Below, one piece after another: positions 7,605-58,274 of a stretch of 64,000 nucleotides of DNA. How positions within the stretch are numbered: position 1 is the first letter of the stretch; each line of letters starts with the position of its first letter. The DNA is from Candidatus Yanofskybacteria bacterium (GTDB taxonomy: Bacteria > Patescibacteriota > Minisyncoccia > 2-02-FULL-40-12 > IGHO2-01-FULL-4-A): NCBI GenBank assembly GCA_016185545.1, contig JACPNJ010000005.1, positions 79,013 to 143,012 of the forward strand, given 5' to 3'. A program made the translations under genes and the position numbers. Below the pieces are notes generated by a model. That model did no database searches. It had not been told where the DNA came from and saw only the letters and a program-made list of their open reading frames with translations.

Positions 7605-8438
7605 TCATTTTAATATCACAAACAAACTGGAACCGAGGGAGGGGTCGAAGATGGGTTTAGCGGAAACGTTTTTGAAAAGGGTACTGGATGAGGATTCAAC
7701 CTTGATGATTTTGGCAACGAGCAGGGCCTCCGGCAAACCGTCAAGACCACTGGTAACAATTGTTTCGCCCTCTCTAATTTCATCGCTATTAGCCACAAGG
7801 TTAAGCACCAGATTATTTTGTAATTCGCCTTTTGTTTCAACCAGTGTTCGCGATTCCTGGACTTGTCCAGCATCAGTTTGGGACGGCTCAAACTGATGCT
7901 GGACAAGTCCGCTAATTTTAATACGTGGATCATCAATGAGCAAAATCAAAGCCGAATCATCAAAAACCTGCTCCGTGATGCCAACCAAAATATTGCCTGT
8001 CGCTATAACTGGCATCTTTTTTTCAATGCCGTTCTTTACGCCTTTGTTAATTAATGCCGTTGAGGACAAAGCGCTTCTTTGTATATTAAAAATCCGCGCC
8101 AATAATAACGGCGAATCCAGCCGTTTCGCTACCCCTAGTTCTTCTCTCAAAAAATTATTTTCGCGTTTTAAACTTTCAAGTTCCGCTAATTGCCCGCGTA
8201 AAATATTATTCTCCTTATAAAATCTGGCATTATCATCAATAATCATTTTGGTTTTTAAATATCCGGAAGAATACCTTGAAAAATTTAGCAGATTGTCCGT
8301 CAAAAAAATACCAGGTTTTTCTGTAATTTTATAGACAAAATTCTGCAGAAAATTATCCGTTAAATAATTATTAAAAAAAACAACCCCAGCGACAATTAAA
8401 ATGACGGCCAGATAGTTTTTATAAAAATTACGAGTCAC
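7605..8438 (-). CDS. mreC: rod shape-determining protein MreC
   Basis: 277 aa; N-terminal TM segment, coiled coil (LRGQLAELESLKRENNFLREEL), C-terminal beta domain; downstream of mreB. Confidence 0.75.
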   Translation of the reverse strand: MTRNFYKNYLAVILIVAGVVFFNNYLTDNFLQNFVYKITEKPGIFLTDNLLNFSRYSSGYLKTKMIIDDNARFYKENNILRGQLAELESLKRENNFLREELGVAKRLDSPLLLARIFNIQRSALSSTALINKGVKNGIEKKMPVIATGNILVGITEQVFDDSALILLIDDPRIKISGLVQHQFEPSQTDAGQVQESRTLVETKGELQNNLVLNLVANSDEIREGETIVTSGLDGLPEALLVAKIIKVESSSSTLFKNVSAKPIFDPSLGSSLFVILK

Positions 8439-10541: not shown

Positions 10542-11825
10542 TTATAACAAAATATCTACTATATTGTCAAGCTCTATTAGTTTGGCATCTTTCTCACCCC
10601 TCCTTTTTACTTCAACACTCTTCTTTTGTAAAGTCTTCTCACTGACGACAAATCGCAACTGACAGCCAATTAAATCGGCATCGGTAAACTTCTCACCGGC
10701 AGATTTGTCCATCCGGTCATCATACAAAACTTCTATGCCGCTATGCAAGACCTTTTCATAAATTTCATCTCCAGATTTTTCCGTTCCTTCCAATGCCAAT
10801 AGATGAACCTTAAATGGCGCTACCGCTTCCGGCCAAATAATTCCCTCATCATCATGGTGTATTTCCACCAAAGCTCCCATAACTCGCCCCAAGCCGATAC
10901 CATACGAACCCATGATCACGAGATGCGACTCCCCTTTCTCGTCAACAAATTTCAAATCAAACGCTTTTGAATATTTATCACCCAACGGAAAAGTATTGCC
11001 GACTTCAATTGATTTGCGCTCTACTATTTTGCCTTTGCATTTCGGGCACTGGCCGTTGTTCATTAATTTTGAAATCTCCTTATTCTCCGCGTATTCGCAT
11101 TTATCACAAATAAAAATCGTATCCTCGCCGATATCGGCAAGCACTTGAAACTCATGGGTGTTCTCCGCGGTAAATGTCCCGCCAGCGGCTATGGTATAAA
11201 TTGCCTTCAGCCCGCAACGGTGAAAAATCTTATGATATGCTCCTTTCACATCTTCATAATATCGCCAAAGGTCATCTTCCGAGGCGTGGAAACTATACAG
11301 GTCTTTCATCATAAACTCCCGCCCGCGCAATAAACCGGACTTGGCACGCGGTTCGTTGCGGAATTTGGTTTGTATCTGGTAAGCGGCAAAAGGCAGGTCT
11401 TTGTATGAACTGACGAAACGCGAAGCAATCGCCGTCAACACTTCTTCATGAGTCCAACCCAAAACAAAATTACTTAGAGGCTCAACCTCGTAGAGGCTCA
11501 ACCTCGTGGAGGTTGAGCCTCTACGTACTGCATGATCATTGGCTATCTTGAATCCTACCTCAACTTCCCATCTGCCAGTAGCATCAAGATATTTTTTTTC
11601 AACCAACGCCGGCATAAACATTTCTATCCCGCCGATCTTGGCCATTTCTTCTCTGATAATGCCAGCAATTTTTTGCATCACTCGCCAGCCCAACGGTAAA
11701 AAAGTGTAAATTCCCGCAGAGTTTTTGTATATGAAACCGCCACGCTCGAGCAACTGCGCATTAACGCTTGTTTCATCTTTGGGATTCTCGCGGGTTGTTT
11801 TGGTAAAAAGTTGAGATAACTTCAT
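10542..11825 (-). CDS. proS: prolyl-tRNA synthetase
   Basis: Class II aaRS motifs, zinc-binding CDKC...CPKC, C-terminal anticodon-binding domain; start at MKLSQLF; carries an in-frame palindromic insertion. Confidence 0.88.
   Translation of the reverse strand: MKLSQLFTKTTRENPKDETSVNAQLLERGGFIYKNSAGIYTFLPLGWRVMQKIAGIIREEMAKIGGIEMFMPALVEKKYLDATGRWEVEVGFKIANDHAVRRGSTSTRLSLYEVEPLSNFVLGWTHEEVLTAIASRFVSSYKDLPFAAYQIQTKFRNEPRAKSGLLRGREFMMKDLYSFHASEDDLWRYYEDVKGAYHKIFHRCGLKAIYTIAAGGTFTAENTHEFQVLADIGEDTIFICDKCEYAENKEISKLMNNGQCPKCKGKIVERKSIEVGNTFPLGDKYSKAFDLKFVDEKGESHLVIMGSYGIGLGRVMGALVEIHHDDEGIIWPEAVAPFKVHLLALEGTEKSGDEIYEKVLHSGIEVLYDDRMDKSAGEKFTDADLIGCQLRFVVSEKTLQKKSVEVKRRGEKDAKLIELDNIVDILL
11474..11525. 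repeat. palindromic element family A (GAGGCTCAACCTC x2 plus inverted copy) inserted in frame in proS
   Basis: ttagaggctcaacctcgtagaggctcaacctcgtggaggttgagcctctacg translates on the minus strand to RRGSTSTRLSLYEVEPL within ProS. Confidence 0.85.
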
Positions 11826-12472: not shown

Positions 12473-13546
12473 TTTGATAATATCTTTAGTTGTAATATAC
12501 ACCATAAGCAAAATCAAAAGCGCAAAACCGGCGGTGTTGATGCTATTCTCAATTTTTTTGGGAATCGGTTTGCCTCTTAACTTTTCTACGCCCACAAAAA
12601 GAAGACGTCCTCCATCCAACGCCGGAAATGGAATAATATTCAATACCGCAAGATTGATGGAGATAAGCGCCACAAATTGCATCAGATAAGTGAAACCGGA
12701 TCTAGCCGCTTTGCCGGTAATAACAGCAATACCAACCGGTCCGGAAAGCTCAACACCGGTCCGTCCGGTTACAAAAATATTTTTAATAATAGTGGCATAA
12801 CCGGCAACGGTGTAACCTAGGATATTAACAGAATCGGTTACTCCATGAATTACCGATTGCGGAAAAGGATATTGTACCAAGCCGGTAGCCGCTAGCGACA
12901 CTCCAAGCGCGCCCTCATTGGGCGGCGGATCAACCCGCGGAGTTATTTTTTTTTCAATTAAATCCTTTCCGTTTCTTATCAGTATTGTAATTTCACTGCC
13001 GGCATTTTGAGCAATAAACTCCTGTACCTCGTTTACATTTGAAACGGCCATAATTTCATCGTTAACTTTGAAGCCGACTATCTCATCAAGCGCTTGCAGT
13101 CCGGCCCGTTCGGCGGGGCTTTGCGCAGTCACCTGTATTATCTGTACTTTAATATTTTGGGCCTGACGAATTGCCGCCTCATCAACTAACCCAATGCGTA
13201 AACCGACGGCATTGCCAATGGTAAGCAAAAGCACCGCAAGCAGGAAATTCATTACTACACCGGCTACTATCACGCCAAACTTAGTGCTAGTCTTGGCTGC
13301 AGCAAAGCTTCTTGGATTTTCTAGTTCCTGTCCGTCTTCACCTAAAATTTTAACGAATCCGCCGAAAGGTATCCAGTTAACGGAATAAATGGTCTCACCG
13401 CGCTTGACACCGAATGCCCGCGGCGGGAAACCAAAACCGAATTCCTCCACTTTCATCCCCGCCCGTTTGGCCATAATAAAATGCCCAAACTCATGGACAA
13501 AAACCAGCACGCTTAAAACAATTATGAAAATTATCAGGGTAATCAT
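12464..13546 (-). CDS. rseP: RIP zinc metalloprotease RseP (site-2 protease)
   Basis: 360 aa; HEFGHF zinc motif near the N-terminal TM, PDZ-like middle, C-terminal TMs. Confidence 0.85.
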   Translation of the reverse strand: MITLIIFIIVLSVLVFVHEFGHFIMAKRAGMKVEEFGFGFPPRAFGVKRGETIYSVNWIPFGGFVKILGEDGQELENPRSFAAAKTSTKFGVIVAGVVMNFLLAVLLLTIGNAVGLRIGLVDEAAIRQAQNIKVQIIQVTAQSPAERAGLQALDEIVGFKVNDEIMAVSNVNEVQEFIAQNAGSEITILIRNGKDLIEKKITPRVDPPPNEGALGVSLAATGLVQYPFPQSVIHGVTDSVNILGYTVAGYATIIKNIFVTGRTGVELSGPVGIAVITGKAARSGFTYLMQFVALISINLAVLNIIPFPALDGGRLLFVGVEKLRGKPIPKKIENSINTAGFALLILLMVYITTKDIIKFL

Positions 13547-13571
13547 TTGATAATAATATCAGAATTCGAAC

Positions 13572-13606
13572 AAGAAAACCACCTATTGAACAAAAAGAAC
13601 TCGCAT
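13572..13606. terminator. bidirectional hairpin aagaactcgc...gcgagttctt between frr and rseP
   Basis: 10-bp stem with T/A runs on both sides. Confidence 0.4.
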
Positions 13607-13653
13607 AGCCGGGCAGCGAGTTCTTTTGTATAAGTTGGTTTGTGATTTTTGAA

Positions 13654-14214
13654 CTATGCCAGTAATTCTGTTTCTTTTTTATTTTCCAGTTCCTCAATTT
13701 TTTTGTTGTAGTCGTCCACAAGTTTTTGGAGATCGTCTTTGGCTTTGAATTTATCGTCTTCGCTGATTTCATGCGCCTGTTCCATGGTTTGCACCTTGTG
13801 CCAGATTTCTTCCCGAATGCGTCGGATTTTAACCCGCGCTTCTTCGGTTTTTTGTTTAAGCAGTTTAATAAACTCCTTGCGCCGCTCCTCGGTCAAGGAC
13901 GGAATATTAAGCCGGATGCTTTGACTATCAACTACCGGATTCAGCCCCAATTCACTCTTACGTATCGCCCCCTCAATGGCCGCCATCACGCCCTTATCCC
14001 AGGGTTGTATTAATAGCGATCTCGGCTCCGGGGCCGTAATCGTCGCCAACTCTTTTATCGTCATCCTCTGCCCATATACTTCGACAGTAACATCTTCAAC
14101 CAGCGCCGGTGTCGCCCTTCCCGTCCTGATGGTCGCAATGTCGGTTTTATAAAACCCCAAAATTCCCTCAAAGTTAGACTTTTTTTGATTTATTAGGTCT
14201 TTAATATTAGTCAT
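13654..14214 (-). CDS. frr: ribosome recycling factor
   Basis: 186 aa; full-length match to the RRF family pattern. Confidence 0.92.
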   Translation of the reverse strand: MTNIKDLINQKKSNFEGILGFYKTDIATIRTGRATPALVEDVTVEVYGQRMTIKELATITAPEPRSLLIQPWDKGVMAAIEGAIRKSELGLNPVVDSQSIRLNIPSLTEERRKEFIKLLKQKTEEARVKIRRIREEIWHKVQTMEQAHEISEDDKFKAKDDLQKLVDDYNKKIEELENKKETELLA

Positions 14215-14716: not shown

Positions 14717-15625
14717 CTAGGCTAGCGAAACGAGAAAATTTTCTAGAGCTAATCTCTGATTAAACTGCGGCTTGTTTATTACTTCGTATAAAACAAGCAG
14801 ATTTTTGAGAATCTTGTGGGTTTTGGGTTCGTTCAAGCGCATTCTTAAATAAAGCATCCAGTACAAAACTTTCTTAGGCAATTCAGCTTTGTTTTTTTCA
14901 TCGGTAAGTTTTTGGGCAATGGTTAGCCGCTCATTGATATCCGATTTAATCAAATACATCACTTCTTCAACCGATTCTTTAACTTCATCAAATGATTTTT
15001 CATCTATGATTTTTTTAATAAGCCCTATCCTACCGTTGGCAAAATCAGTCAAAAAATCAATTTTAGTTTTTGATAATTTAAAATCTGCCAAAAAAATTTT
15101 GATAACCGTTTGCGAATGTGGCTGAAACTTAATTTCCTGACAACGGGAAACTATGGTCGGCAAAAGCGACTCCGAATTAGCGGAAACAAGAATCAGGATA
15201 GACGATAAATTCGGTTCCTCTAGAACCTTCAATAGGGCATTCTGCGCTTCCACTGTCATCAAATAAGCATTATCAATAACCACAAATTTATACGGACTAG
15301 CGCTATAGGGACTTAACGAAATAAAATTTTTAATTTTGCGCACATCTTCAATGGCTATAGTCTGTCCGCTTTCGGAATTGGCCGAATTGACAAATAAAAC
15401 ATCCGGATTATTTAGAGGCTCAACCTCGTAGAGGCTCAACCTCGTAGAGGTTGAGCCTCTAAATAGACTTATTTTAAACAAATTCTGTACCAATTCCAAC
15501 GCAAATGTACGCTTACCTATCATGTCTTGGCCGGTAAAAAGATAGGCATGGCTTAATTGGCCATTTTTTATGACTGTTTCAAAAAAAAATTTATTTTTAT
15601 CAAAACCGATTGTATGCCAAGTCAT
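14717..15625 (-). CDS. holB: DNA polymerase III delta-prime-like clamp-loader subunit
   Basis: 302 aa AAA+ fold (LFTGQDMIGKRTFALELVQNL); 4-nt overlap with murG; carries family A palindromic insertion. Confidence 0.7.
   Translation of the reverse strand: MTWHTIGFDKNKFFFETVIKNGQLSHAYLFTGQDMIGKRTFALELVQNLFKISLFRGSTSTRLSLYEVEPLNNPDVLFVNSANSESGQTIAIEDVRKIKNFISLSPYSASPYKFVVIDNAYLMTVEAQNALLKVLEEPNLSSILILVSANSESLLPTIVSRCQEIKFQPHSQTVIKIFLADFKLSKTKIDFLTDFANGRIGLIKKIIDEKSFDEVKESVEEVMYLIKSDINERLTIAQKLTDEKNKAELPKKVLYWMLYLRMRLNEPKTHKILKNLLVLYEVINKPQFNQRLALENFLVSLA
15413..15464. repeat. palindromic element family A inserted in frame in holB (encodes RGSTSTRLSLYEVEPL)
   Basis: ttagaggctcaacctcgtagaggctcaacctcgtagaggttgagcctctaaa; near-identical to the proS copy. 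Confidence 0.85.
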
Positions 15626-17252: not shown

Positions 17253-18965
17253 TTATTTTAATAATTTAAGCATTTCTCGCCAAACTCTTGTATTTATCAC
17301 GTCTTTTTTGCCAGACCACCCTCTGCGCGCTTGAGCTATACCTAATTCCAAAAATTTGAAGTGGCTAATATCATGAGCATCGGAATCAATCGCCAGCTTG
17401 ATTCCAGTATCAATGGCTTTGCGGATATATTCGTCTTTGAGGTCCAGACGTTCCGGCCAAGCGTTGACTTCCAGCACCGTTTTGGTCCGTTTAGCGGCTT
17501 TTATAAGCTCATCAATATTCACTTTGTACGGCTCTCTTTTTTGTATCAACCGACCCGTGGGATGGAATAATATATCGATGTTCGGATTTTCTATCGCCCT
17601 AATTATACGCTTCGTCATTTCAATTTCCGACATAGTAAAATTAGAGTGTACAGACGCTCCGACTACATCAAGTTTGGCCAACACCTCGTCATTTATATCA
17701 AGCGTGCCGTCTTTCAGTATATCCACTTCGCTACCCTTGAGAATTTTAATGCCGCTAATTTGTTTTTGAACTTTATCAATTTCAGCCATTTGCTTGGTCA
17801 GCTTTTTTTCATCCAATCCGCCGGCCATAGCAAGTCGCTTGGTGTGGTCGGTTATAACAATATATTCAAGCCCCAGTTTTTTTGCCGCTTCAGCCATTTC
17901 CTTAATTGAATGTTCGCCATCAGTCCAATCGGTCTGAACCTGTAAATCGCCACGCAGATCATCATAACCGATTAGTCTCGGTAATTCTCCCTTAAATGAT
18001 GATTTTATTTCTCCGCTATTCGTTCTAATTTCCGGCTCCATCCACTCCATGCCTAATTTTTTATAAATCTCCTCTTCTGTTTTTCCAGCGACAAGTCTTT
18101 TACTTTTAAAAAGTCCATACTCGTTCAACTTGTATCCTTTTTTAATCGCAATCTCCCGAACGGCTATATTGTGGTATTTGTCTCCGGTAAAATATTGAAG
18201 CGCCGCCCCGAATGATTCCGGCGGCAGAACGCGTACGTCGGCATTCATTCCCATTTTTAACCGCACCGAGGTTTTAGTCGGACCTTTGACCAATATTTCC
18301 TGAACTTCAGACATTTTTACAAAATAATCCATAACTTTCGCTGGCATGTCGGAAATAACCAGAATGTCTAAATCACCCACAGTTTCCTGCATCCTCCTGA
18401 TTGAACCGGCTGGTTCGGCCCGTTTGATATAAGGCAAGCCGCGCAAATCATCCAGCATTTTGCGGACAGTCGGCAAAATATGGCCCAACAAAAAACGGCC
18501 GTGTGACTGCCGCAGGAATTCTATGCCTTTTAATATTTTTTGCTCGGATTTCTCGCCAAGACCCTCAAGTCCCCGCAATTTGCCAGCTTTAGCTGCTCTT
18601 TCTAGGTCGTCTTGATTCTTGATTCTTAATTCTTGATATAATTTTTTAACCAGCTTTGGTCCAACTCCTTCAATACCCATCAGCTCCTCCACTTCAATAG
18701 GAAATTGTTTTTTTAACTTTTCGTAATCTTTAATATGACCTGTTTTGATATATTCTTCAATTCGTTCGGCAATGCCTTGGCCAACACCAGATATGTCTTC
18801 AAGCGCTTTGAGTCCGCCTTTTTTATAAATTTCACCTATGCCCTCTTCAAGAGATTGTACGGAAAATGCCGCATGCTCATACGCCCGCGGCTTAAATTCC
18901 ACTTCTTTCATATCCAAAAACGCCGCCATCTCCCCCAAAATTTTCGCCAGCCCCTGGTTAGACAT
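17253..18965 (-). CDS. polX: family X DNA polymerase with C-terminal PHP domain
   Basis: 570 aa; HhH and Pol-beta-like nucleotidyltransferase N-half; PHP histidinol-phosphatase-like C-half (HSNFTMSE...DSDAH). Confidence 0.88.
   Translation of the reverse strand: MSNQGLAKILGEMAAFLDMKEVEFKPRAYEHAAFSVQSLEEGIGEIYKKGGLKALEDISGVGQGIAERIEEYIKTGHIKDYEKLKKQFPIEVEELMGIEGVGPKLVKKLYQELRIKNQDDLERAAKAGKLRGLEGLGEKSEQKILKGIEFLRQSHGRFLLGHILPTVRKMLDDLRGLPYIKRAEPAGSIRRMQETVGDLDILVISDMPAKVMDYFVKMSEVQEILVKGPTKTSVRLKMGMNADVRVLPPESFGAALQYFTGDKYHNIAVREIAIKKGYKLNEYGLFKSKRLVAGKTEEEIYKKLGMEWMEPEIRTNSGEIKSSFKGELPRLIGYDDLRGDLQVQTDWTDGEHSIKEMAEAAKKLGLEYIVITDHTKRLAMAGGLDEKKLTKQMAEIDKVQKQISGIKILKGSEVDILKDGTLDINDEVLAKLDVVGASVHSNFTMSEIEMTKRIIRAIENPNIDILFHPTGRLIQKREPYKVNIDELIKAAKRTKTVLEVNAWPERLDLKDEYIRKAIDTGIKLAIDSDAHDISHFKFLELGIAQARRGWSGKKDVINTRVWREMLKLLK
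18611..18637. repeat. (CTTGATT/CTTAATT)x~4 heptamer array inside polX
   Basis: cttgattcttgattcttaattcttgat, coding ..ELRIKNQDD.. Confidence 0.8.
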
Positions 18966-28894: not shown

Positions 28895-30316
28895 CTATAA
28901 TTCGAATGATTCGCCCTCAACTGGCGCTACGGCTTCAATGCCATATTTTTCGTGAATTAGATTAGCGAGGGTGCGGGCGGATTCGTCTTCGCCTTGAACG
29001 ACAAAGACTTTTTTTAGATTGCCCGCACCGCCGCCTTGAACTGTTGAACCGCCAACCCACTTGATGAGACTTAGCTGATCGGCATGGGCGGAATAAGCTG
29101 ACAGGTTTTCTATATGGCACTTGACTGGCACCGTTTGGCCCATGATTCTGACTTCTTTTTCGCCCCTTTGAATGCGCCGGCCCAAACTGCCGTCAACTTG
29201 GTAACCGACAAAAAGTATCGTGCTGTTTGTATCCGGTAAATAACGCATTTCGTGATGCAAAATCCTGCCACCTTGGCTCATGCCTGAACCGGCAATTATA
29301 ATCTTAGGCGCCGGCACGTTATTTATCGCTTTTGATTCTTCGACGGCGGTTGTGAGTTTTAAACCCGGGAAATTAAATACGTCGTCACCGGAACCGATCA
29401 AATACGCCGTCTCTTTATTAAAATATTCGCGGTGTTTTTGGTATACAGCGGTCATTTTATTGGCGAGGGGGCTGTCAACAAACACCGGTACCCGTGGAAT
29501 TTTATTTTCATTGAAAAGCCCGTTTAATTCATGCAGAAGCTCTTGCGTGCGCTCAACGGCAAATGAGGGTATCATCAGCACCCCGCTTCGCTTGATTGTG
29601 TCCTCAATTACCGAAATCAGCTTACTTCTTCTCTCCTTTCTGCCCTCATGCACTCGATCACCATAAGCCGATTCAATAACAATATAGTCGGCATTTTTAA
29701 TTTTTTCGGTCGGTCGCAGAAGCGGCGTCGGCGGATTGCCGAGGTCGCCAGAGAAGAAAATCTTTCTGGTACCAGAAAGATTTTCTTCTCTGGCTTGGTA
29801 ATTGGTAATTGGTAATTGGTAATTGGTTCGCCATTGTATTTCTACAATTGCCGAACCCAGTATATGACCTGCGTCATGGAAAATTGCAGTAATCCCCTCC
29901 AGTTCAATCGGTTCATCATAAAAAACCCCCTCCACAAGCGACATCAGCCCGTCCAGATCCTCCTGTATAAATAATGGCTCATGTCCCATCTCTTTAGCTT
30001 CATCCAAAATCTTATTCAAATTATCAGGAAGTGCGACGGCCATCAGGTCGCGGGTGGCAGTGGTCGTGTAAACTTTGCCGCGGAAACCGTCTTTGTAAAG
30101 TTTCGGCAAACGCCCGATGTGGTCAATATGGCTGTGGGTAATAAAAACATATTTAATCTCTGCGGGATTATATTTGAATTGACCATAATTCAATTCTTCG
30201 GCATATCTTGTGCCTTGATTCAAGCCGCAATCTACGAGTATTTTGGTATGGCCGTGTTCGAGTAGATAATTAGCTCCGGTAACGGTACGAGCACCACCAT
30301 AAAAAGTTATTTTCAT
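28895..30316 (-). CDS. RNase J-like beta-CASP metallo-beta-lactamase ribonuclease
   Basis: HSHIDHIG motif; MBL plus beta-CASP plus RNA-specificity-like C-terminus; contains a heptamer array. Confidence 0.8.
   Translation of the reverse strand: MKITFYGGARTVTGANYLLEHGHTKILVDCGLNQGTRYAEELNYGQFKYNPAEIKYVFITHSHIDHIGRLPKLYKDGFRGKVYTTTATRDLMAVALPDNLNKILDEAKEMGHEPLFIQEDLDGLMSLVEGVFYDEPIELEGITAIFHDAGHILGSAIVEIQWRTNYQLPITNYQAREENLSGTRKIFFSGDLGNPPTPLLRPTEKIKNADYIVIESAYGDRVHEGRKERRSKLISVIEDTIKRSGVLMIPSFAVERTQELLHELNGLFNENKIPRVPVFVDSPLANKMTAVYQKHREYFNKETAYLIGSGDDVFNFPGLKLTTAVEESKAINNVPAPKIIIAGSGMSQGGRILHHEMRYLPDTNSTILFVGYQVDGSLGRRIQRGEKEVRIMGQTVPVKCHIENLSAYSAHADQLSLIKWVGGSTVQGGGAGNLKKVFVVQGEDESARTLANLIHEKYGIEAVAPVEGESFEL
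29797..29827. repeat. (GGTAATT)x4 heptamer array inside the RNase J-like gene
   Basis: ggtaattggtaattggtaattggtaattgg encoding ..NYQLPITNYQ.. Confidence 0.85.
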
Positions 30317-33732: not shown

Positions 33733-35007
33733 TTATGAAAGCAATTCCAAAACTATTTCTTTATCTGACCATGAAATCTTTTTCCCTCCAGCCACAGCCA
33801 TTAAATTCTCGGACCCCTTGCCGGTTATTACGACTATATCATCAACTTGAGCTAGAACTAAGGCTTTTCTGATTGCCTCTTTGCGGTCTAGAATTTTGGT
33901 ATAGTTTTCAGTTTGCGAGAACCCCGAAGCAATTTGTTCCAAAATTGCCTCGGGGTTCTCGTCATAAGGGTCCTCGTTCGTCAAAATCACCTCATTGCAA
34001 TATTTGGCCGCGATCTTGCCAAACTCAGGCCGCTTCCATTTGTCCCGACCGCCGCCGGCTGCCCCCAATACACAGATGAGTTTATTACGAGGTTCAACCT
34101 CAACAGAAATATGGGGTTGGTTTCTTAGGGTTTTGTAAACCAGTTCCAATGAATCCGGCGTGTGAGCATAATCAATAATTACATTAAAACCTTTCGGCGC
34201 ATGAATGATTTCCATTCTGCCTGGTATTGATTTGATTGAATTTAGCGACGCTACCGCTTTATTCATATCAAGATTATAAGCATGCGCTACGGCCAATGCC
34301 GCCAAGGCGTTATATTCGTTAAAATCCCCCAGCAATTTTAAGTTAAGTTTTTCATTTTTCGTTTTTAGCTTTTCACTTGTTATCATCCCCCATTTTTTGC
34401 CATATGTTACTTTGTGTTGCGCCGTAAAATTGGCAAATTTTTCAAAATACGGATCGTCAATGTTAAGTACGTGGATATTGCCAGTTTTCAGAAAAAGTTT
34501 CTGCTTGGCGGCCATATAATTTTCAAATGAGCCATGGCTTTCCAAATGTTCACGGTGCAAATTGGTAAAAACGGCACAATCAATTTTGACACCAGCCAGA
34601 CGATTTTGGACAATACCCTCTGAAGTGGCTTCGAGCACCACGTATCGACAACCGGCTTTTTTTGCCTGATATAAAAATTTCTGCAACTTGAGTCGCCCCG
34701 GCAAAGTCATTTTTAGCGTATTGGGCCATGTCCGTTCTTTTATCTTAAACCCGAGCGACCCCACTGCCGCCACCGACAGCCCCTGCTCCTCAAAAATCTT
34801 GCTTATCATATAAACCGTCGTTGATTTGCCCTTAGTCCCGGTAACTGCTATCACCCTCATCGCCTGCGACGGAAAACCATAAATCGCTGCCCCCAGCATT
34901 ACCAGCCCCCAATGATAAACCGGCTGTGCCAATTTAAAAATCCGCCGCGGTAACACGGCGCGCCCCAAACCTAGCAATTTGTTTAGTAATCGGTTCTCTT
35001 GAAACAC
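33733..35007 (-). CDS. Mur ligase family protein (MurE/MurF-like)
   Basis: VIAVTGTKGKSTT P-loop; Mur ligase middle and C-terminal domains. Confidence 0.6.
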   Translation of the reverse strand: MFQENRLLNKLLGLGRAVLPRRIFKLAQPVYHWGLVMLGAAIYGFPSQAMRVIAVTGTKGKSTTVYMISKIFEEQGLSVAAVGSLGFKIKERTWPNTLKMTLPGRLKLQKFLYQAKKAGCRYVVLEATSEGIVQNRLAGVKIDCAVFTNLHREHLESHGSFENYMAAKQKLFLKTGNIHVLNIDDPYFEKFANFTAQHKVTYGKKWGMITSEKLKTKNEKLNLKLLGDFNEYNALAALAVAHAYNLDMNKAVASLNSIKSIPGRMEIIHAPKGFNVIIDYAHTPDSLELVYKTLRNQPHISVEVEPRNKLICVLGAAGGGRDKWKRPEFGKIAAKYCNEVILTNEDPYDENPEAILEQIASGFSQTENYTKILDRKEAIRKALVLAQVDDIVVITGKGSENLMAVAGGKKISWSDKEIVLELLS

Positions 35008-38585: not shown

Positions 38586-40793
38586 ATGAGCAAAGCGATA
38601 GAACCTAGACCAAAACTACCAGCCAGTTTGAAACTCTGGAAATACGAAATAGAACGGATCGGTAAAAAATACGGCTTGGATTTTTATCCGAATATAATTG
38701 TCATGGCCGACCATGAAGAAATATCGGAGTTGGCCGCTTATTCCGGCTATCCGGTTCGTTACCACCATTGGTTTTTCGGCCAGGAAAGTATCAAACTCAA
38801 AAAGTCATACCGCTGGGGATTGCACATTATCTATGAAATGGTCATACCCACCATTCCCTGCTACTCGTATTTTTTGGATGCCAATCCTGAAGTTACGCAA
38901 AAAGCTGTTATTGCCCACGCCTGCATCGGCCATAACGACTTTTTCAAAAATAACGCCTGGTTTCGCGATATTCCAAGAAATCTCCATCACCGTTTCGGCG
39001 ACAATGCCGAGCACATAGAGACCCTGCGTCTGGAAATTGGAACGGAAAAAGTAAATAAGTTTCTAGAGGCCTGCATGTCTCTGGATAATTTATTCAATCT
39101 CCTGGGGCCGATTATCATTCAAGAACACAAAACCGTTAAAACCAAAACAGAGAAAAGGTTTCCAAAACGTATTAAACCGCGGGATGAATTGCCTTTTTTC
39201 ATGGACCCATATATCAATCCTCCGGAATATCTGGAAAGGGAGCGTAAAAAAATAGAACAGGAAGAAAAACGGGAAGCCGATATTGAACGCAAATTGATTA
39301 CACCGCCGGAACCGGTCCGCGACATCTTGTATTTTCTTATGAATAACGCGCCACTGGAAAAGTGGCAACGTGAAGTTATACGGATAGTGCGCGAGGAATC
39401 GCTGTGCCTGGCTAAAGGCGGCCAGACGAAAATCATGAATGAGGGCTGGGCGGCATTCTGGGAAGCTAAAATTATGGCCGGAGAAGGCGTCGCCGTCGAT
39501 TCGGAGGTTTGCTCATTTGCCAAAACATTTGCGGGAGTCCAGCACAGCGGTCGTTTTAAAATAAACCCTTACTGTCTCGGTAAACAACTCTGGGACGACA
39601 TCAAGTTCCGTTGGGATACCGGCCGCCTTGGTGAAATCTGGAATAAATGCAAAGACGGGATTATAAAAGACAACTGGGAAGAATTTATTGTTTTCAAATC
39701 TCTTTATGATGAATTCGGCGGTATGACCGAAGAAGCAACCAGGTTGTGGAATGAATTCTCTACGCTTGTCCACGAAACTAGAGAAAACAAGGGTTGGATT
39801 AAAAAAGCATTCTTCTTGCCGGAAGATTGGATTTCGGAATGGTTGAAATACCGCGAGGCAGAAACAAAATTACCCGCGTTGGAAGAAGCTCTGGAATATA
39901 TAAAAAAACTTGAAGAAAAATACCGTTCAGAACGAAATGATTCGCTGGCACCACTGGCTACAAGACACAAAATCATGCTCAATTCATTATCTCCTTTCGC
40001 CTTTTGGGGTTCTGATGAATTAGGTCAGGAAATTGCCGGATACAGATTTTATCTGAATCTGCGCACTAAACTGGCAAACGGCGAAGTGCCAATTCATAAT
40101 GTTGAAATACCAGAACAATGGATTGGGTGGGCTGGTAAATATCAATTTTTGGGACGTTTGGGCCAAGGATACGAAAAAATATTTGAAGTTCGTGCGGTTT
40201 ATAATGATGTAAATTTCATTCAGGACTTCTTTAATCAGGATTTCTGTGATAAATACAGCTATTATACTTTTGGAATCGGCAAATCACCGCCGGGGTCGTT
40301 CTGGGGCGAAGATCGTCTTTTAATCAAATCCAGAAATTTTATAAGGGTTAGGAAATTGCTTATTGAAATGTGCCTAAACCTAGGCCAGCCGAAAATTGTT
40401 CTGCTTGACGCTAACTTCAACAACAATTCCGAGTTGCGGTTTGTGCATCTGTACGACGGCCGCGACACCTGCTATAACGGCTGCGCCGATTGTGGCAGGG
40501 CCGGATTGGGTATAAAAGAAGTGTTGGAACGGCTTTATCTTGTTTGGAATAAAGACAAACCGGTTCATTTGGAAACCGTAAAAACAGCTTGGCCGAAGAA
40601 AAAACCGCCTTGGTTTTATTGGTTTCCGACAGGATATACGCCTTCGAAATCAGGGATTGAAAAACCAACCAGAAGATGGGTCAGATACACTTACAACGGA
40701 AAAAATCATATAGAAGCGGTGGTTGGTAAGGCTGATATACACAACTGGGAAGCCATAAAAAAACTTCTACCCGTAGAACCAGAATTAACTTGA
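38586..40793 (+). CDS. spoVR: SpoVR/YcgB-family protein, unusually long (735 aa)
   Basis: N-terminal LKLWKYEIERIGKKYGLDFYPNIIVMADHEE... matches SpoVR; 9-nt gap after yhbH. Confidence 0.85.
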   Translation: MSKAIEPRPKLPASLKLWKYEIERIGKKYGLDFYPNIIVMADHEEISELAAYSGYPVRYHHWFFGQESIKLKKSYRWGLHIIYEMVIPTIPCYSYFLDANPEVTQKAVIAHACIGHNDFFKNNAWFRDIPRNLHHRFGDNAEHIETLRLEIGTEKVNKFLEACMSLDNLFNLLGPIIIQEHKTVKTKTEKRFPKRIKPRDELPFFMDPYINPPEYLERERKKIEQEEKREADIERKLITPPEPVRDILYFLMNNAPLEKWQREVIRIVREESLCLAKGGQTKIMNEGWAAFWEAKIMAGEGVAVDSEVCSFAKTFAGVQHSGRFKINPYCLGKQLWDDIKFRWDTGRLGEIWNKCKDGIIKDNWEEFIVFKSLYDEFGGMTEEATRLWNEFSTLVHETRENKGWIKKAFFLPEDWISEWLKYREAETKLPALEEALEYIKKLEEKYRSERNDSLAPLATRHKIMLNSLSPFAFWGSDELGQEIAGYRFYLNLRTKLANGEVPIHNVEIPEQWIGWAGKYQFLGRLGQGYEKIFEVRAVYNDVNFIQDFFNQDFCDKYSYYTFGIGKSPPGSFWGEDRLLIKSRNFIRVRKLLIEMCLNLGQPKIVLLDANFNNNSELRFVHLYDGRDTCYNGCADCGRAGLGIKEVLERLYLVWNKDKPVHLETVKTAWPKKKPPWFYWFPTGYTPSKSGIEKPTRRWVRYTYNGKNHIEAVVGKADIHNWEAIKKLLPVEPELT

Positions 40794-40833: not shown

Positions 40834-41862
40834 TTAAAAAATTTTCCTGGCTAACCGGTAAACCAAATACCAAAATTTTGAAATCGGCAGGTCAAATGAG
40901 CCGGGGTATTCAATGGTATTGCCGCCCCAGCCGAGTTTGAAACGGGTAACGCCGGGCCATTTGCGCGGGTCAATACCCCAAAAATCATATCGTTTTAGAC
41001 CTTCCGCTTTTAATTGCTTCATTATGTGCCAGTGCAAGGCATAAGGAGCCATAAGTGCTCTGTTTTCGTAATCAGAAGCACCGTGTAAATAGTAACCAGC
41101 ATCGCCGTAAGTAAGAATTAAGGCCGTGGCGATCGGTTTGTCATGAGTTTTGTCGAAGGGTTTGTTGTTATGCTTGGCAAAATATAATTTGGTTTGAAGT
41201 CCGTTATAATCCAACAATTTTCTGTAATAGTCATCCGGGTGCGGATTAAATCTATCCCGTTTGGCGGTTTTTTTAAGCAATTTTAAGAAAGTTTCAACTT
41301 TTGCACGATATTCTGCACGACATGCGATGTCGTGCTTCTGCACGACATCGCATGTCGTGCAAGTTACCTCTTCGCCCACGATTATGCCACGTTTATCGGC
41401 AACACCGATATTGTAGCGGGTCTTGTGATGCATAGCCGCGAGTAATTCGTTTTCGCTTTTTGTTAAATCAACAACAACCGTCTTCGACGGTTGGATTTCT
41501 TTTTTTGATTTTTTAAAACCTGCCTCAACCAGCGCTTGGGCAATGCTATCAATAAGCGGTTCGGTTTTTATAAAAATTGACTTGCGTTTTTTGCTTTCTT
41601 CGCGCAACCACCTTACGAAATTCGCCACTGGATTCTTAAATCCGCCTATCATCTGATTGAAGTCAATCTCCGGCCCATGCGGTATATAAAGATAGCTTTT
41701 CCCAAACGGTAAATTGTGTTTAATTATTTTGGCGCTTATTACAGGAGGTTGAGCCTCTTTACTTAGAGGCTCAACCTCTAAGTTTTCCGGGTATTCCAAA
41801 ACCTCCCGCCCCAGCGATTTCTGAAATTTCGTCCATTCTCTTGACTGAAGAAATGAGGTCAT
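40834..41862 (-). CDS. FemAB-family peptidoglycan bridge-forming aminoacyltransferase
   Basis: LQSREWTKFQ N-terminus; YALHWHIMKQLKAEGLKRYDFWGI...FKLGWGG C-terminus; carries two different palindromic insertions. Confidence 0.7.
   Translation of the reverse strand: MTSFLQSREWTKFQKSLGREVLEYPENLEVEPLSKEAQPPVISAKIIKHNLPFGKSYLYIPHGPEIDFNQMIGGFKNPVANFVRWLREESKKRKSIFIKTEPLIDSIAQALVEAGFKKSKKEIQPSKTVVVDLTKSENELLAAMHHKTRYNIGVADKRGIIVGEEVTCTTCDVVQKHDIACRAEYRAKVETFLKLLKKTAKRDRFNPHPDDYYRKLLDYNGLQTKLYFAKHNNKPFDKTHDKPIATALILTYGDAGYYLHGASDYENRALMAPYALHWHIMKQLKAEGLKRYDFWGIDPRKWPGVTRFKLGWGGNTIEYPGSFDLPISKFWYLVYRLARKIF
41311..41360. repeat. palindromic element family C: 25-bp unit ttctgcacgacatgcgatgtcgtgc followed by its inverted-core copy, in frame in the FemAB-like gene
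   Basis: gcacgacatgcgatgtcgtgc is self-complementary except the centre; encodes TCTTCDVVQKHDIACRAE. Confidence 0.8.
41745..41783. repeat. family A palindromic element (GAGGTTGAGCCTC-N8-GAGGCTCAACCTC) in frame in the FemAB-like gene
   Basis: Encodes ..NLEVEPLSKEAQPP.. Confidence 0.8.
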
Positions 41863-44753: not shown

Positions 44754-44820
44754 GATAAAAATCACCCCCGACTCCGCCTGCAGGCGGAGTCGGGGGTTTC
44801 CGGTTTGTAATTTTTGATAA
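44754..44820 (+). repeat. small repetitive extragenic module: GATAAAAATCACCCCC - 14-bp GC hairpin - GGTTTGTAATTTTTGAT; the hairpin doubles as a terminator
   Basis: Hairpin cccccgactccgcc tgca ggcggagtcggggg at 44765..44796; same end motifs as 47928, 48240 and 55633. Confidence 0.6.
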
Positions 44821-46563: not shown

Positions 46564-46610
46564 TCTTATCAATTATAAAATCCGCCTCAAGCGGATTTTA
46601 TAATTGATAA
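46564..46610. terminator. perfect 20-bp hairpin ttatcaattataaaatccgc-ctcaa-gcggattttataattgataa between tRNA-Lys and the convergent HD gene
   Basis: Direct reading; overlaps the HD gene stop codon. Confidence 0.6.
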
Positions 46611-56085: not shown

Positions 56086-57540
56086 TCACTCTTCTGGTAA
56101 TTTTTCACGCGACACTCTCGGCTTCTGTTTTTCCAACCACTCCTTGAGGAATAGCGTTGCTTTTACATCGTCTTCGTTGTATTTGATGATTTTGTCCATG
56201 ATTTTTTGGTCTTTGGTTTTGAGCCAGTCATTGTACCAAACCACTGACTCGGCACCGCCGGCGTCTTCGGCCTGCCATTTGAAACCAAGGTACTTGGCTA
56301 CATCTTTCAAGCTGTAAAAATAAATCGGTAAAACCGCCGCCTCTATAAACGACCAATGCAAATCAATAGTATTATTCTTAAACTTATCTTCTAGCGCCAG
56401 TGAAATACCGTATTTATTACCCAAACGCTTGAAAACTTCGCGCTCATAGTATGAATAGTGGTAAATCACAAAATCCTCCAATGATTCCAAAAAATCAAGA
56501 AATTCACGCCAAGCCCTTTCCTCGTCTTTTTTATCCTGTGCCAAAAAGTATTTGTATGTTGGCTCTTTCTTGCCACTTTCTATAAGCATGCCCAAAAGAT
56601 AATCAATGCCTTCGGTGGGGTCCGATTCTATATCAAAGTAAATCTCATTTTCCACTTGCGGAAATTCGCTTTTTTTGAGAATTCTAGGTTCGTTTGAAAT
56701 CAAAACCTGGGCCTGATTATAAAAACGCAGGATTTTATCAAACGGCCAGTCTTCAAGACGGGAACGCAAAAAATCCAAATCAGCCGAAGCCAAGTCATTT
56801 ACAGTATGAATACCGAGCTCATAAAGTCGCCGCTGATCGTTCTGGCTCAATTTATAAATTAACGAAACGTCATCGCAACCCTTCGTTTCTTCAACGCATA
56901 AAGAATACCAAGGCGATTGCTTACAACCGCTTTTTAGAAACGGGGGGGGTTTTTCGCCGGCAAGCACCCGCTCTATCCTTTCTCGTGTCAGATGAAAATA
57001 ATCTAAAAAATCATCAACCATGAATGACCGCTCCTCGCCATCGGAATTGATGATGTGGGCATCGCGGGGCAAAACACCCTGCAATCTTTCTAAAATTAAA
57101 CTGTAAAAAACAAGCTGGAACTTGTACTCATCGCGTATTTCTTTGCCGCTTTTAATGTCATAGACAACATAATAATGATCGCCAAGATTTGATTTCATCC
57201 CCTTTTCTACGGGACGGGCTTCAAGCAAATCAGGTATCCCGACCCAATTTTCATCCATCAATACACCATGATAAATATTTTTGCCCTGTTTCATCAGTTC
57301 AAGAGTCGCCAAAAATGCCTCATCAAGATCGTGGAAAAATTCCGGTTTTATTTCTTCAAAATTCCGGCCCTTGATCATTTCCAGCTCATGCTTCAATCCG
57401 CCGCGGTGAATCATTTCAATCAGCGGCGGGATTTCACCCTTCTTCGCCTGCTCGCCGTAAATGTCATACCAAATCCAGTGGGGACATTGGAAAAATTTAT
57501 AAAAATGCTCCCCGGTCAATTTTGGCTTTTTATCAGTCAT
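56086..57540 (-). CDS. TM0106-family RecB-like nuclease (Cas4-like PD-(D/E)XK plus RNase H-like domain)
   Basis: FFQCPHWIW, IPDLL...VYDIKSG, C-x-C-x-C cluster (SGCKQSPWYSLCVEETKGC), then YFDIESDP exonuclease-like motif. Confidence 0.6.
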   Translation of the reverse strand: MTDKKPKLTGEHFYKFFQCPHWIWYDIYGEQAKKGEIPPLIEMIHRGGLKHELEMIKGRNFEEIKPEFFHDLDEAFLATLELMKQGKNIYHGVLMDENWVGIPDLLEARPVEKGMKSNLGDHYYVVYDIKSGKEIRDEYKFQLVFYSLILERLQGVLPRDAHIINSDGEERSFMVDDFLDYFHLTRERIERVLAGEKPPPFLKSGCKQSPWYSLCVEETKGCDDVSLIYKLSQNDQRRLYELGIHTVNDLASADLDFLRSRLEDWPFDKILRFYNQAQVLISNEPRILKKSEFPQVENEIYFDIESDPTEGIDYLLGMLIESGKKEPTYKYFLAQDKKDEERAWREFLDFLESLEDFVIYHYSYYEREVFKRLGNKYGISLALEDKFKNNTIDLHWSFIEAAVLPIYFYSLKDVAKYLGFKWQAEDAGGAESVVWYNDWLKTKDQKIMDKIIKYNEDDVKATLFLKEWLEKQKPRVSREKLPEE

Positions 57541-57551
57541 TTTATCGGGAT

Positions 57552-58274
57552 TTATTCGTTTATGTGTTTATGATTCTCCGCCCAAAGACAATACTGACAT
57601 TCCGAGTGAGATTGCGGTGGAACGTCGGAGCGTGCAAGTTTTACCGCGTCAGCGAAAATATCATAGATATAACTCGGGTCTGCGGTTACCTCACGAATTT
57701 CACCGCGAAATGGCAAACGGCCGCGGAAACCGTCAGTTTTGTCCACTTGGAAGAATACGAAATAGGCTTTGCGAGCGGTTTTGAGACCCAACTGTTCAAG
57801 TATGTAAGTATATGTATCCATTTGCATTTGATAATCATCATAGACAGAAATTTCTTTGGCGCCGGAAGATTTATAGTCTATAACGGCCAGCGAGCCGTCT
57901 GGAAATTTAAGCATGTCGTCAACGGCGCCGAAAAGCGTGGCATCAAGACTCTCATCGTGATATTTCAGCCCTTCAAAATTATTGCGCCATTTTTGGAGCT
58001 GCGCTTGATCGGGGTAGAGTTTCGCATCGGACAAACCGTTATGACCCAGCAAAACTGGATGCATCTCTCCCTTTTCTCGATATTCGTCAAACTCATGCTT
58101 AAGTAATTGGTCTACGGCTATTGAAAGCGTATAAGGATAACCCTGCGGACGCCTTATGTCTTTGTGTTTATACAACCAAAAACACCGCGGACATTCTTTC
58201 ATCAGCTGAAGATTAGCGCGGGATATTTTGAGGAGTTTGGATGTTTTGATAAACGTCATAAATCCAAATATCAA
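57552..58274 (-). CDS. standalone Cas4-like PD-(D/E)XK nuclease (4-Cys)
   Basis: ECPRCFW N-terminal Cys pair, VIDYKSSG catalytic motif, SECQYCLW C-terminal Cys pair. Confidence 0.6.
   Translation of the reverse strand: MIFGFMTFIKTSKLLKISRANLQLMKECPRCFWLYKHKDIRRPQGYPYTLSIAVDQLLKHEFDEYREKGEMHPVLLGHNGLSDAKLYPDQAQLQKWRNNFEGLKYHDESLDATLFGAVDDMLKFPDGSLAVIDYKSSGAKEISVYDDYQMQMDTYTYILEQLGLKTARKAYFVFFQVDKTDGFRGRLPFRGEIREVTADPSYIYDIFADAVKLARSDVPPQSHSECQYCLWAENHKHINE

Follow-up and report, generated by a model that had tools for sequence, protein, structure and literature searches.

The window analysed here, a 64-kb stretch of DNA in which all positions below are counted, carries on its minus strand an intact gene for a FemX/FemAB-type aminoacyl-tRNA-dependent peptidoglycan bridge transferase, which is interrupted by translated, hairpin-forming DNA (Table 1). 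The open reading frame (ORF) matched the Pfam FemAB family (PF02388) at E = 9e-43 and 147 bits, against a cut-off of 24, and the encoded protein matches NCBI MBI2670026.1, which comes from a Candidatus Yanofskybacteria MAG, at 100% identity. AlphaFold, run with 120 homologs, gave a model with a mean pLDDT of 90 and, in Foldseek, the best fold matches of this model were the FemX structures 6snr (E = 4e-21) and 1ne9 (E = 2e-19), in keeping with a tandem GNAT-like fold whose second GNAT domain (PF13480) starts at residue 183. Of the 90 alignment columns with a conservation of 90% or more, the protein retained the consensus residue in all 90, the top score among 120 sequences, which identifies the host gene as one under normal purifying selection and refuting a suggestion in the initial annotation that selection on it had been relaxed. 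Nucleotide identity between positions 40600 and 46400 and the corresponding region of another Yanofskybacteria genome, L019 (GCA_016181055.1), was mosaic, with values of 93–98% in Band_7, 83–91% in RuvA, 77–89% in UvrB and 69–78% in FemX, the most diverged gene of the block, suggesting that this cell-wall gene has either recombined or evolved fast.

A palindromic doublet within the FemX gene

The doublet comprises two 25-nt units, each with a 9-bp stem and a 3-nt loop; the 5-nt core of one is TGCGA, and that of the other is its reverse complement, TCGCA. The initial annotation had described a 25-bp unit followed directly by a copy with its 5-nt core inverted, the two together forming a palindrome; the plus-strand letters of the region bear out the first part, and an inverted-repeat scan of the window bears out the second, returning perfect 22-nt arms around a 4-nt spacer. 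The doublet is read in frame on the minus strand and encodes the peptide TCTTCDVVQKHDIACRAE. Together with a partial third copy that shares 12 of 14 bases with the unit tail ATGTCGTGCAGAAG, the two hairpin units make up a 63-nt insert relative to orthologs. The heptamer TGCACGA occurs in the window only at positions 41302, 41314 and 41339, and the 21-mer of the unit matched nothing in the 64 kb except its own locus, with no match of any kind in 100 shuffles. Folded as RNA, the coding strand forms a 23-bp stem of −48 kcal/mol (z = −8.4); as DNA, the palindrome folds at about −31 kcal/mol on either strand (z = −11 to −12), and one unit as single-stranded DNA at −10 kcal/mol.

Table 1 Positions of the FemX gene, its inserts and other features of the window.
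Feature	Position	Strand	Sequence or remark
FemX/FemAB-type transferase gene	40834–41862	minus	342 aa, intact
In-frame insert relative to orthologs, 63 nt	41299–41361	minus	codons 168–188, CTTCDVVQKHDIACRAEYRAK; from protein and codon alignments
Doublet, first unit as read on plus strand	41311–41335	plus	ttctGCACGACATgcgATGTCGTGC
Doublet, second unit as read on plus strand	41336–41360	plus	ttctGCACGACATcgcATGTCGTGC
Perfect 48-nt palindrome	41314–41361		arms 41314–41335 and 41340–41361, spacer TTCT at 41336–41339
Hairpin unit 1 (first in mRNA)	41340–41360	minus	GCACGACAT-GCG-ATGTCGTGC
Hairpin unit 2	41315–41335	minus	GCACGACAT-CGC-ATGTCGTGC; exact reverse complement of unit 1
Partial third copy	41299–41313	minus	GAATATCGTGCAAAA (EYRAK)
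Family A doublet in FemX	41745–41778	minus	GAGGTTGAGCCTC..GAGGCTCAACCTC (LEVEPLSKEAQPP); hairpin insert unrelated to the doublet at 41311–41360
Other family A loci	11471–11527, 15409–15465, 34089–34101		
Third extra FemX segment	41140–41163	minus	KPFDKTHD, non-hairpin
Direct repeats GGTTTGT	41135–41141, 41159–41165		7 nt, 24-nt period
Palindrome in conserved FemX codons	41475–41493		CAACCGTC-gaa-GACGGTTG, 8-bp stem
Mur ligase inverted repeat	33916–33961	minus	20-nt arms; gene 33733–35007
RNase J-like gene palindrome	29747–29794		perfect, 48 nt, no spacer, in frame; gene 28895–30316
MreC gene inverted repeat	7859–7910		perfect 22-nt arms, 8-nt spacer, in frame, encodes GLVQHQFEPSQTDAGQVQ; gene 7605–8438
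Palindrome after UvrB	44764–44797		perfect, intergenic, 17-nt arms
Palindrome between two convergent genes	46566–46610		perfect, intergenic, 20-nt arms
PolX-type polymerase with PHP domain	17253–18965		
Two adjacent PD-(D/E)XK/Cas4-like nucleases	56086–58274		

The insertion site in orthologs

Comparison of ortholog lengths confirmed that the doublet belongs to an insertion, as the initial annotation had proposed. The segment from RYNI to FLKLLKK measures exactly 29 residues in 109 of 120 homologs and 50 in the window protein, where the canonical sequence G-E-x-x-x-V-D/E-x-F is split into GEEVT and VETF by 21 amino acids. Inserts at this site were present in 11 of the 120 orthologs, the window protein included, and absent from the other 109. 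Four of the ten other inserted homologs were read at the DNA level, and all four inserts proved to be hairpins, that of P0003, described below, being a diverged form of the window doublet. That of P0120 is CTGCC-ggcga-GGCAG, that of P0083 is GCAAGGT-cca-ACCTTGC, and in that of P0062 two inner hairpins sit within an 11-bp outer stem (CCCTGTTAAAT / ATTTAACAGGG); these three are unrelated to the window hairpin and to each other, and inserts at the site vary in sequence, length and stability. More widely, among eight orthologs for which DNA was available, 7 of 14 lineage-specific FemX inserts of at least five residues folded with z < −2.5, compared with 11 of 171 control coding segments.

In the structural model the insert lies between a strand at residues 160–165 and a helix at residues 178–203, with pLDDT falling to 65–74 over residues 161–180. 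Because other orthologs carry unrelated hairpins at the same position, the site is a permissive loop, at the surface and close to where the two GNAT-like lobes meet, which supports the permissive region that had been postulated for this gene.

A relative of the insert was found in a single ortholog, P0003, a 350-aa protein from an unrelated run and sample, where it occupies the same site in the same frame; a homolog search seeded with P0003 recovered no third carrier among FemX homologs. The two genes share 76.5% nucleotide identity overall and 59% at third codon positions. The units of P0003 read TGTACGACAT-tcg-ATGACGTACA and GCACGACAT-tcg-ATGTCGTGC, are separated by 12 nt and fold as two separate hairpins. 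Stem bases are identical to those of the window at 33 of 36 positions, including all 18 of unit 2, whereas in unit 1 one C:G pair has become T:A by a compensatory change and one further substitution disrupts a pair. In P0003 the two loops each read TCG and are thus direct, whereas those of the window are inverted. Common descent of the two inserts would be the parsimonious explanation but not a proven one, because the gene tree (neighbour-joining, 42 orthologs) was star-like and united the window protein and P0003 as sisters with a bootstrap value of only 13%. A recent horizontal transfer that brought in insert and flanks together was considered and rejected, since the flanks of the two genes are no more alike than the rest of the gene.

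The Cys-rich peptide encoded by the doublet, for which the initial annotation had raised the prospect of a conserved, metal-binding loop, is not conserved: its only related insert is that of P0003, in which the CxxC of the window protein is replaced by CTTF, and 109 of 120 orthologs have no insert at all. A metal-binding loop was rejected on these grounds, an outcome that favours the insertion proposed at the outset. The three cysteines are there because the stem reads TGCACG / CGTGCA, and the 21 extra residues are tolerated passengers, with the cysteines as by-products of the stem sequence.

Further hairpins in the gene and the window

The FemX gene also bears a hairpin insert of a second kind, as had been noted at the outset, in the form of a doublet of the repeat termed family A. 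The family A unit is a 13-nt hairpin (GAGGCTCAACCTC), often preceded by GTAG or TTAG, which occurs in one to three units, in both orientations and always within coding genes (class II aminoacyl-tRNA synthetase, holB-like, Mur ligase and FemX). The synthetase and holB-like genes hold near-identical 57-nt copies in the same reading frame, the Mur ligase gene a single unit and FemX a doublet; family A is a real dispersed repeat. Its arms in FemX co-vary, reading TTGAG/CTCAA in the window and TTGAA/TTCAA in P0003, and in P0002 the small hairpin of one arm has been perfected instead.

A third extra segment of FemX, KPFDKTHD, forms no hairpin and is bounded by direct repeats; at its site orthologs carry other inserts, among them a 16-bp perfect hairpin in P0002. 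A short palindrome lies in the conserved codons for KEIQPSKTV; it arises from a use of synonymous codons particular to the source genome and could be due to chance.

Across the window we counted 14 perfect inverted repeats with arms of at least 10 nt, compared with about one in shuffled sequence, and such repeats lie inside several essential genes (RNase J-like, MreC, Mur ligase and FemX). The repeat in the Mur ligase gene is no insertion: the alignment is free of gaps, the length is that of the orthologs, and the sequence encodes a conserved C-terminal motif, EDPYDExPExI..I.SG.S. The same motif is encoded by a long hairpin of different sequence in two other Yanofskybacteria genomes, with one mismatch in L019 (gene 12540–13799) and with perfect 20-nt arms in L014 (5031–5080). 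Over four sequences, 8 of 22 pairs had changed on both sides, a number reached in none of 500 shuffles and set against 1–4 in slid controls. These compensated pair changes point to coding hairpins of the clade that have been kept over long divergence with their arms co-evolving, and the Mur ligase palindrome appears to be maintained with its amino acids dragged along.

Other features of the window are recorded here for completeness. On the coding strand, four AATTACC repeats in tandem lead straight into the palindrome of the RNase J-like gene, each arm of which is itself a near-palindrome; the sequence of the MreC inverted repeat is unique within the window. The two intergenic palindromes are probably terminators, and the region of the one that follows UvrB is poorly conserved in L019. 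The PolX-type polymerase and the two Cas4-like nucleases are possible candidates for players in hairpin or break processing.

Origin of the doublet and its relation to known elements

On balance, and with moderate confidence, we favour the explanation that the doublet is the core of a lineage-specific, translated hairpin insert whose arms were made identical by templated correction of one arm from the other. An older insert would have held two neighbouring hairpin units, a state still seen in P0003. In the window lineage, one templated event, either a template switch within the molecule or gene conversion in a fold-back, would then have copied arm from arm or flipped one loop, and a single change of three adjacent bases, GCG to CGC, would suffice to yield perfect 22-nt arms, converting two small hairpins into one perfect 22-bp palindrome in which the 3-nt core of one unit is flipped. 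Template switching at a quasipalindrome (the Ripley model) can alter several adjacent bases in one event, turning an imperfect inverted repeat into a perfect one or flipping its loop, and minute hairpin-loop inversions occur in plastid DNA. The GCG to CGC change in the doublet matches such a switch and bears its signature. Ripley-type switching is a mutational mechanism rather than an element, and accounts for why the arms are perfect but not for how the insert arose; the first hairpin may have come in as a small mobile element or been made on the spot by duplication, and the partial third copy would fit local duplication or slippage. We infer templated correction of the doublet from the comparison with P0003, seen against the co-varying arms of family A and of the Mur ligase palindrome; as there are only two carriers, covariation within the doublet itself comes down to one compensatory pair and the loop flip. 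A similar process appears to maintain other coding palindromes of the clade. Two observations sit less easily with correction of a local hairpin. An identity of 33 of 36 stem bases in genes that are 76.5% identical is not predicted by unbiased conversion alone and could instead reflect sequence-specific constraint or a conserved mobile element, and short hairpin repeats do spread within the source genome, as family A demonstrates.

A parallel to templated correction of coding arms comes from the mitochondria of Nematomorpha, whose genes contain perfect, unique inverted repeats that have both arms translated and are gained and lost between species, with arm conversion or template switching proposed by the authors as their upkeep (PMC6649704). 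The doublet shares with them a perfect and unique inverted repeat in a coding sequence and the translation of both arms. It differs in that the hairworm palindromes reach 284 bp in conserved regions of mitochondrial genes, with arms that encode conserved protein, whereas the doublet occupies a non-conserved, inserted loop of a bacterial gene that most orthologs lack. Within the window, the Mur ligase palindrome, with its clear arm co-evolution, is the better match. In the mitochondria of fungi and sponges, double-hairpin and repetitive hairpin-forming elements are likewise short and are occasionally found in coding regions at length-variable sites (PMC2800124); they differ from the doublet in being organellar, mostly intergenic and repeated many times per genome.

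A rather unlikely alternative is that the doublet is one copy of a multi-copy selfish palindromic element, akin to those of Rickettsia or to REPINs, that transposed into FemX and survived in frame in a permissive loop. The variety of in-frame hairpin inserts across the FemX gene family would suit such an element, as would the true dispersal of family A, with its 57-nt copies in two other genes and two further loci, and the stem bases held in common with P0003. Rickettsia palindromic elements (RPEs) are hairpin DNA carried in frame by housekeeping genes; they are translated, and are tolerated where the fold of the protein can accommodate them (review PMC10969869). The doublet insert is likewise in-frame, hairpin-forming DNA in a protein gene, but its 63 nt fall short of the ~100–150 bp of RPEs, and it is known from one locus and one ortholog, at the same site, whereas RPEs are dispersed in many copies with conserved peptides. 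In build, the doublet is REPIN-like: two short imperfect palindromes, inverted with respect to each other, form one long hairpin, and the unit falls within the 20–40 nt expected. Doublets of REPs (REPINs or BIMEs) are mobilised by RAYT transposases, and among the ~50 ORFs of the window we found no transposase, RAYT (Y1 transposase) included. REPs are described as lying outside genes, numbering tens to hundreds of copies and bearing GTAG or CGTC tags (PMC3733652); the doublet, in contrast, is intragenic, occupies a single locus in the window and is flanked by TTCT and AAGT. Family A resembles GTAG-tagged REPs and fits their description better than the doublet does, yet is also intragenic. Nor does the doublet have the terminal inverted repeats, target-site duplication and multiple copies of a MITE: the whole of it is one inverted repeat, its flanks GTAACT and GAAACT are only weakly alike, giving no clear target duplication, and no other copies were found.

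The search for such copies spoke against a selfish element. No second copy was present in the 64-kb window or in the Yanofskybacteria loci fetched for comparison. Scans for the exact hairpin pattern, its loop left free, in collections that do not include the source genome, returned two matches in 185,579 GTDB species genomes, nine in 241 million JGI metagenome records and one in IMG/VR, all of them single hairpins in unrelated contexts with a G+C content of 45–72%, and no doublets. A HMMER search of the 30-aa insert region against 1.84 billion representatives gave no matches, which is weak evidence given the short query and representatives without the insert. The initial annotation had presented the doublet as one of a family of selfish insertions; because no other copy was found in the data searched and the window holds no transposase, both 'family' and 'selfish' are unproven.

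It is improbable, in our judgement, that the insert is adaptive, whether as a Cys/His-rich metal-binding loop or, in the mRNA, as a hairpin that makes ribosomes pause or the transcript more stable where the two lobes of the enzyme meet. The great stability of the RNA hairpin, its position near the start of the second GNAT domain, the recurrence of hairpins at this exact site in other lineages and the retention of the Mur ligase hairpin through compensatory changes would all be in keeping with a function. Against this stand the great majority of orthologs that do without any insert, the loss of the CxxC in P0003 and the variability of what the site contains; moreover, no T-run follows the hairpin, a terminator scan made no call on it, and Rfam returned only generic hairpins (microRNA precursors) far below threshold. 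An assembly or amplification artefact such as a fold-back chimera can be dismissed for practical purposes: chimeric reads can yield perfect palindromes, but the doublet is real because the DNA of the gene is identical in three independent run assemblies, as it is in the NCBI contig, the reading frame is intact, and an unrelated sample holds a diverged, homologous insert in P0003.

Returning to templated correction, the FemX doublet looks like a local case of a wider habit of this lineage, that of carrying hairpins in essential genes. Hairpins in coding sequence are normally at odds with protein function, and here the essential cell-wall enzyme of an uncultivated, ultra-small bacterium with a minimal genome holds two of them, with more in neighbouring housekeeping genes; in the literature searched we found no account, for Patescibacteria, of coding palindromes or of hairpins inserted in frame. 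More tentatively, and with rather less confidence than we place in the account of the doublet itself, we propose that in Yanofskybacteria, and perhaps in Patescibacteria broadly, a DNA-level process makes palindromes in essential genes and keeps them perfect by templated conversion between arms. If so, conversion would act with enough force to carry the encoded amino acids along, the Mur ligase motif being an example, and would populate permissive loops with hairpins of unique sequence; the FemX doublet would be one product of a bacterial counterpart to the coding palindromes of hairworm mitochondria. As a single locus the doublet is of moderate interest; the wider pattern, and above all the compensated Mur ligase palindrome, merits dedicated study. 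In practice, hairpin inserts make proteins appear longer, interrupt contigs and can lead the alignment and annotation of these genomes astray. If they are maintained by active conversion or arrive as tiny hairpin elements, they would be a source, so far undescribed, from which proteins of the Candidate Phyla Radiation gain variation in length and changes in sequence.
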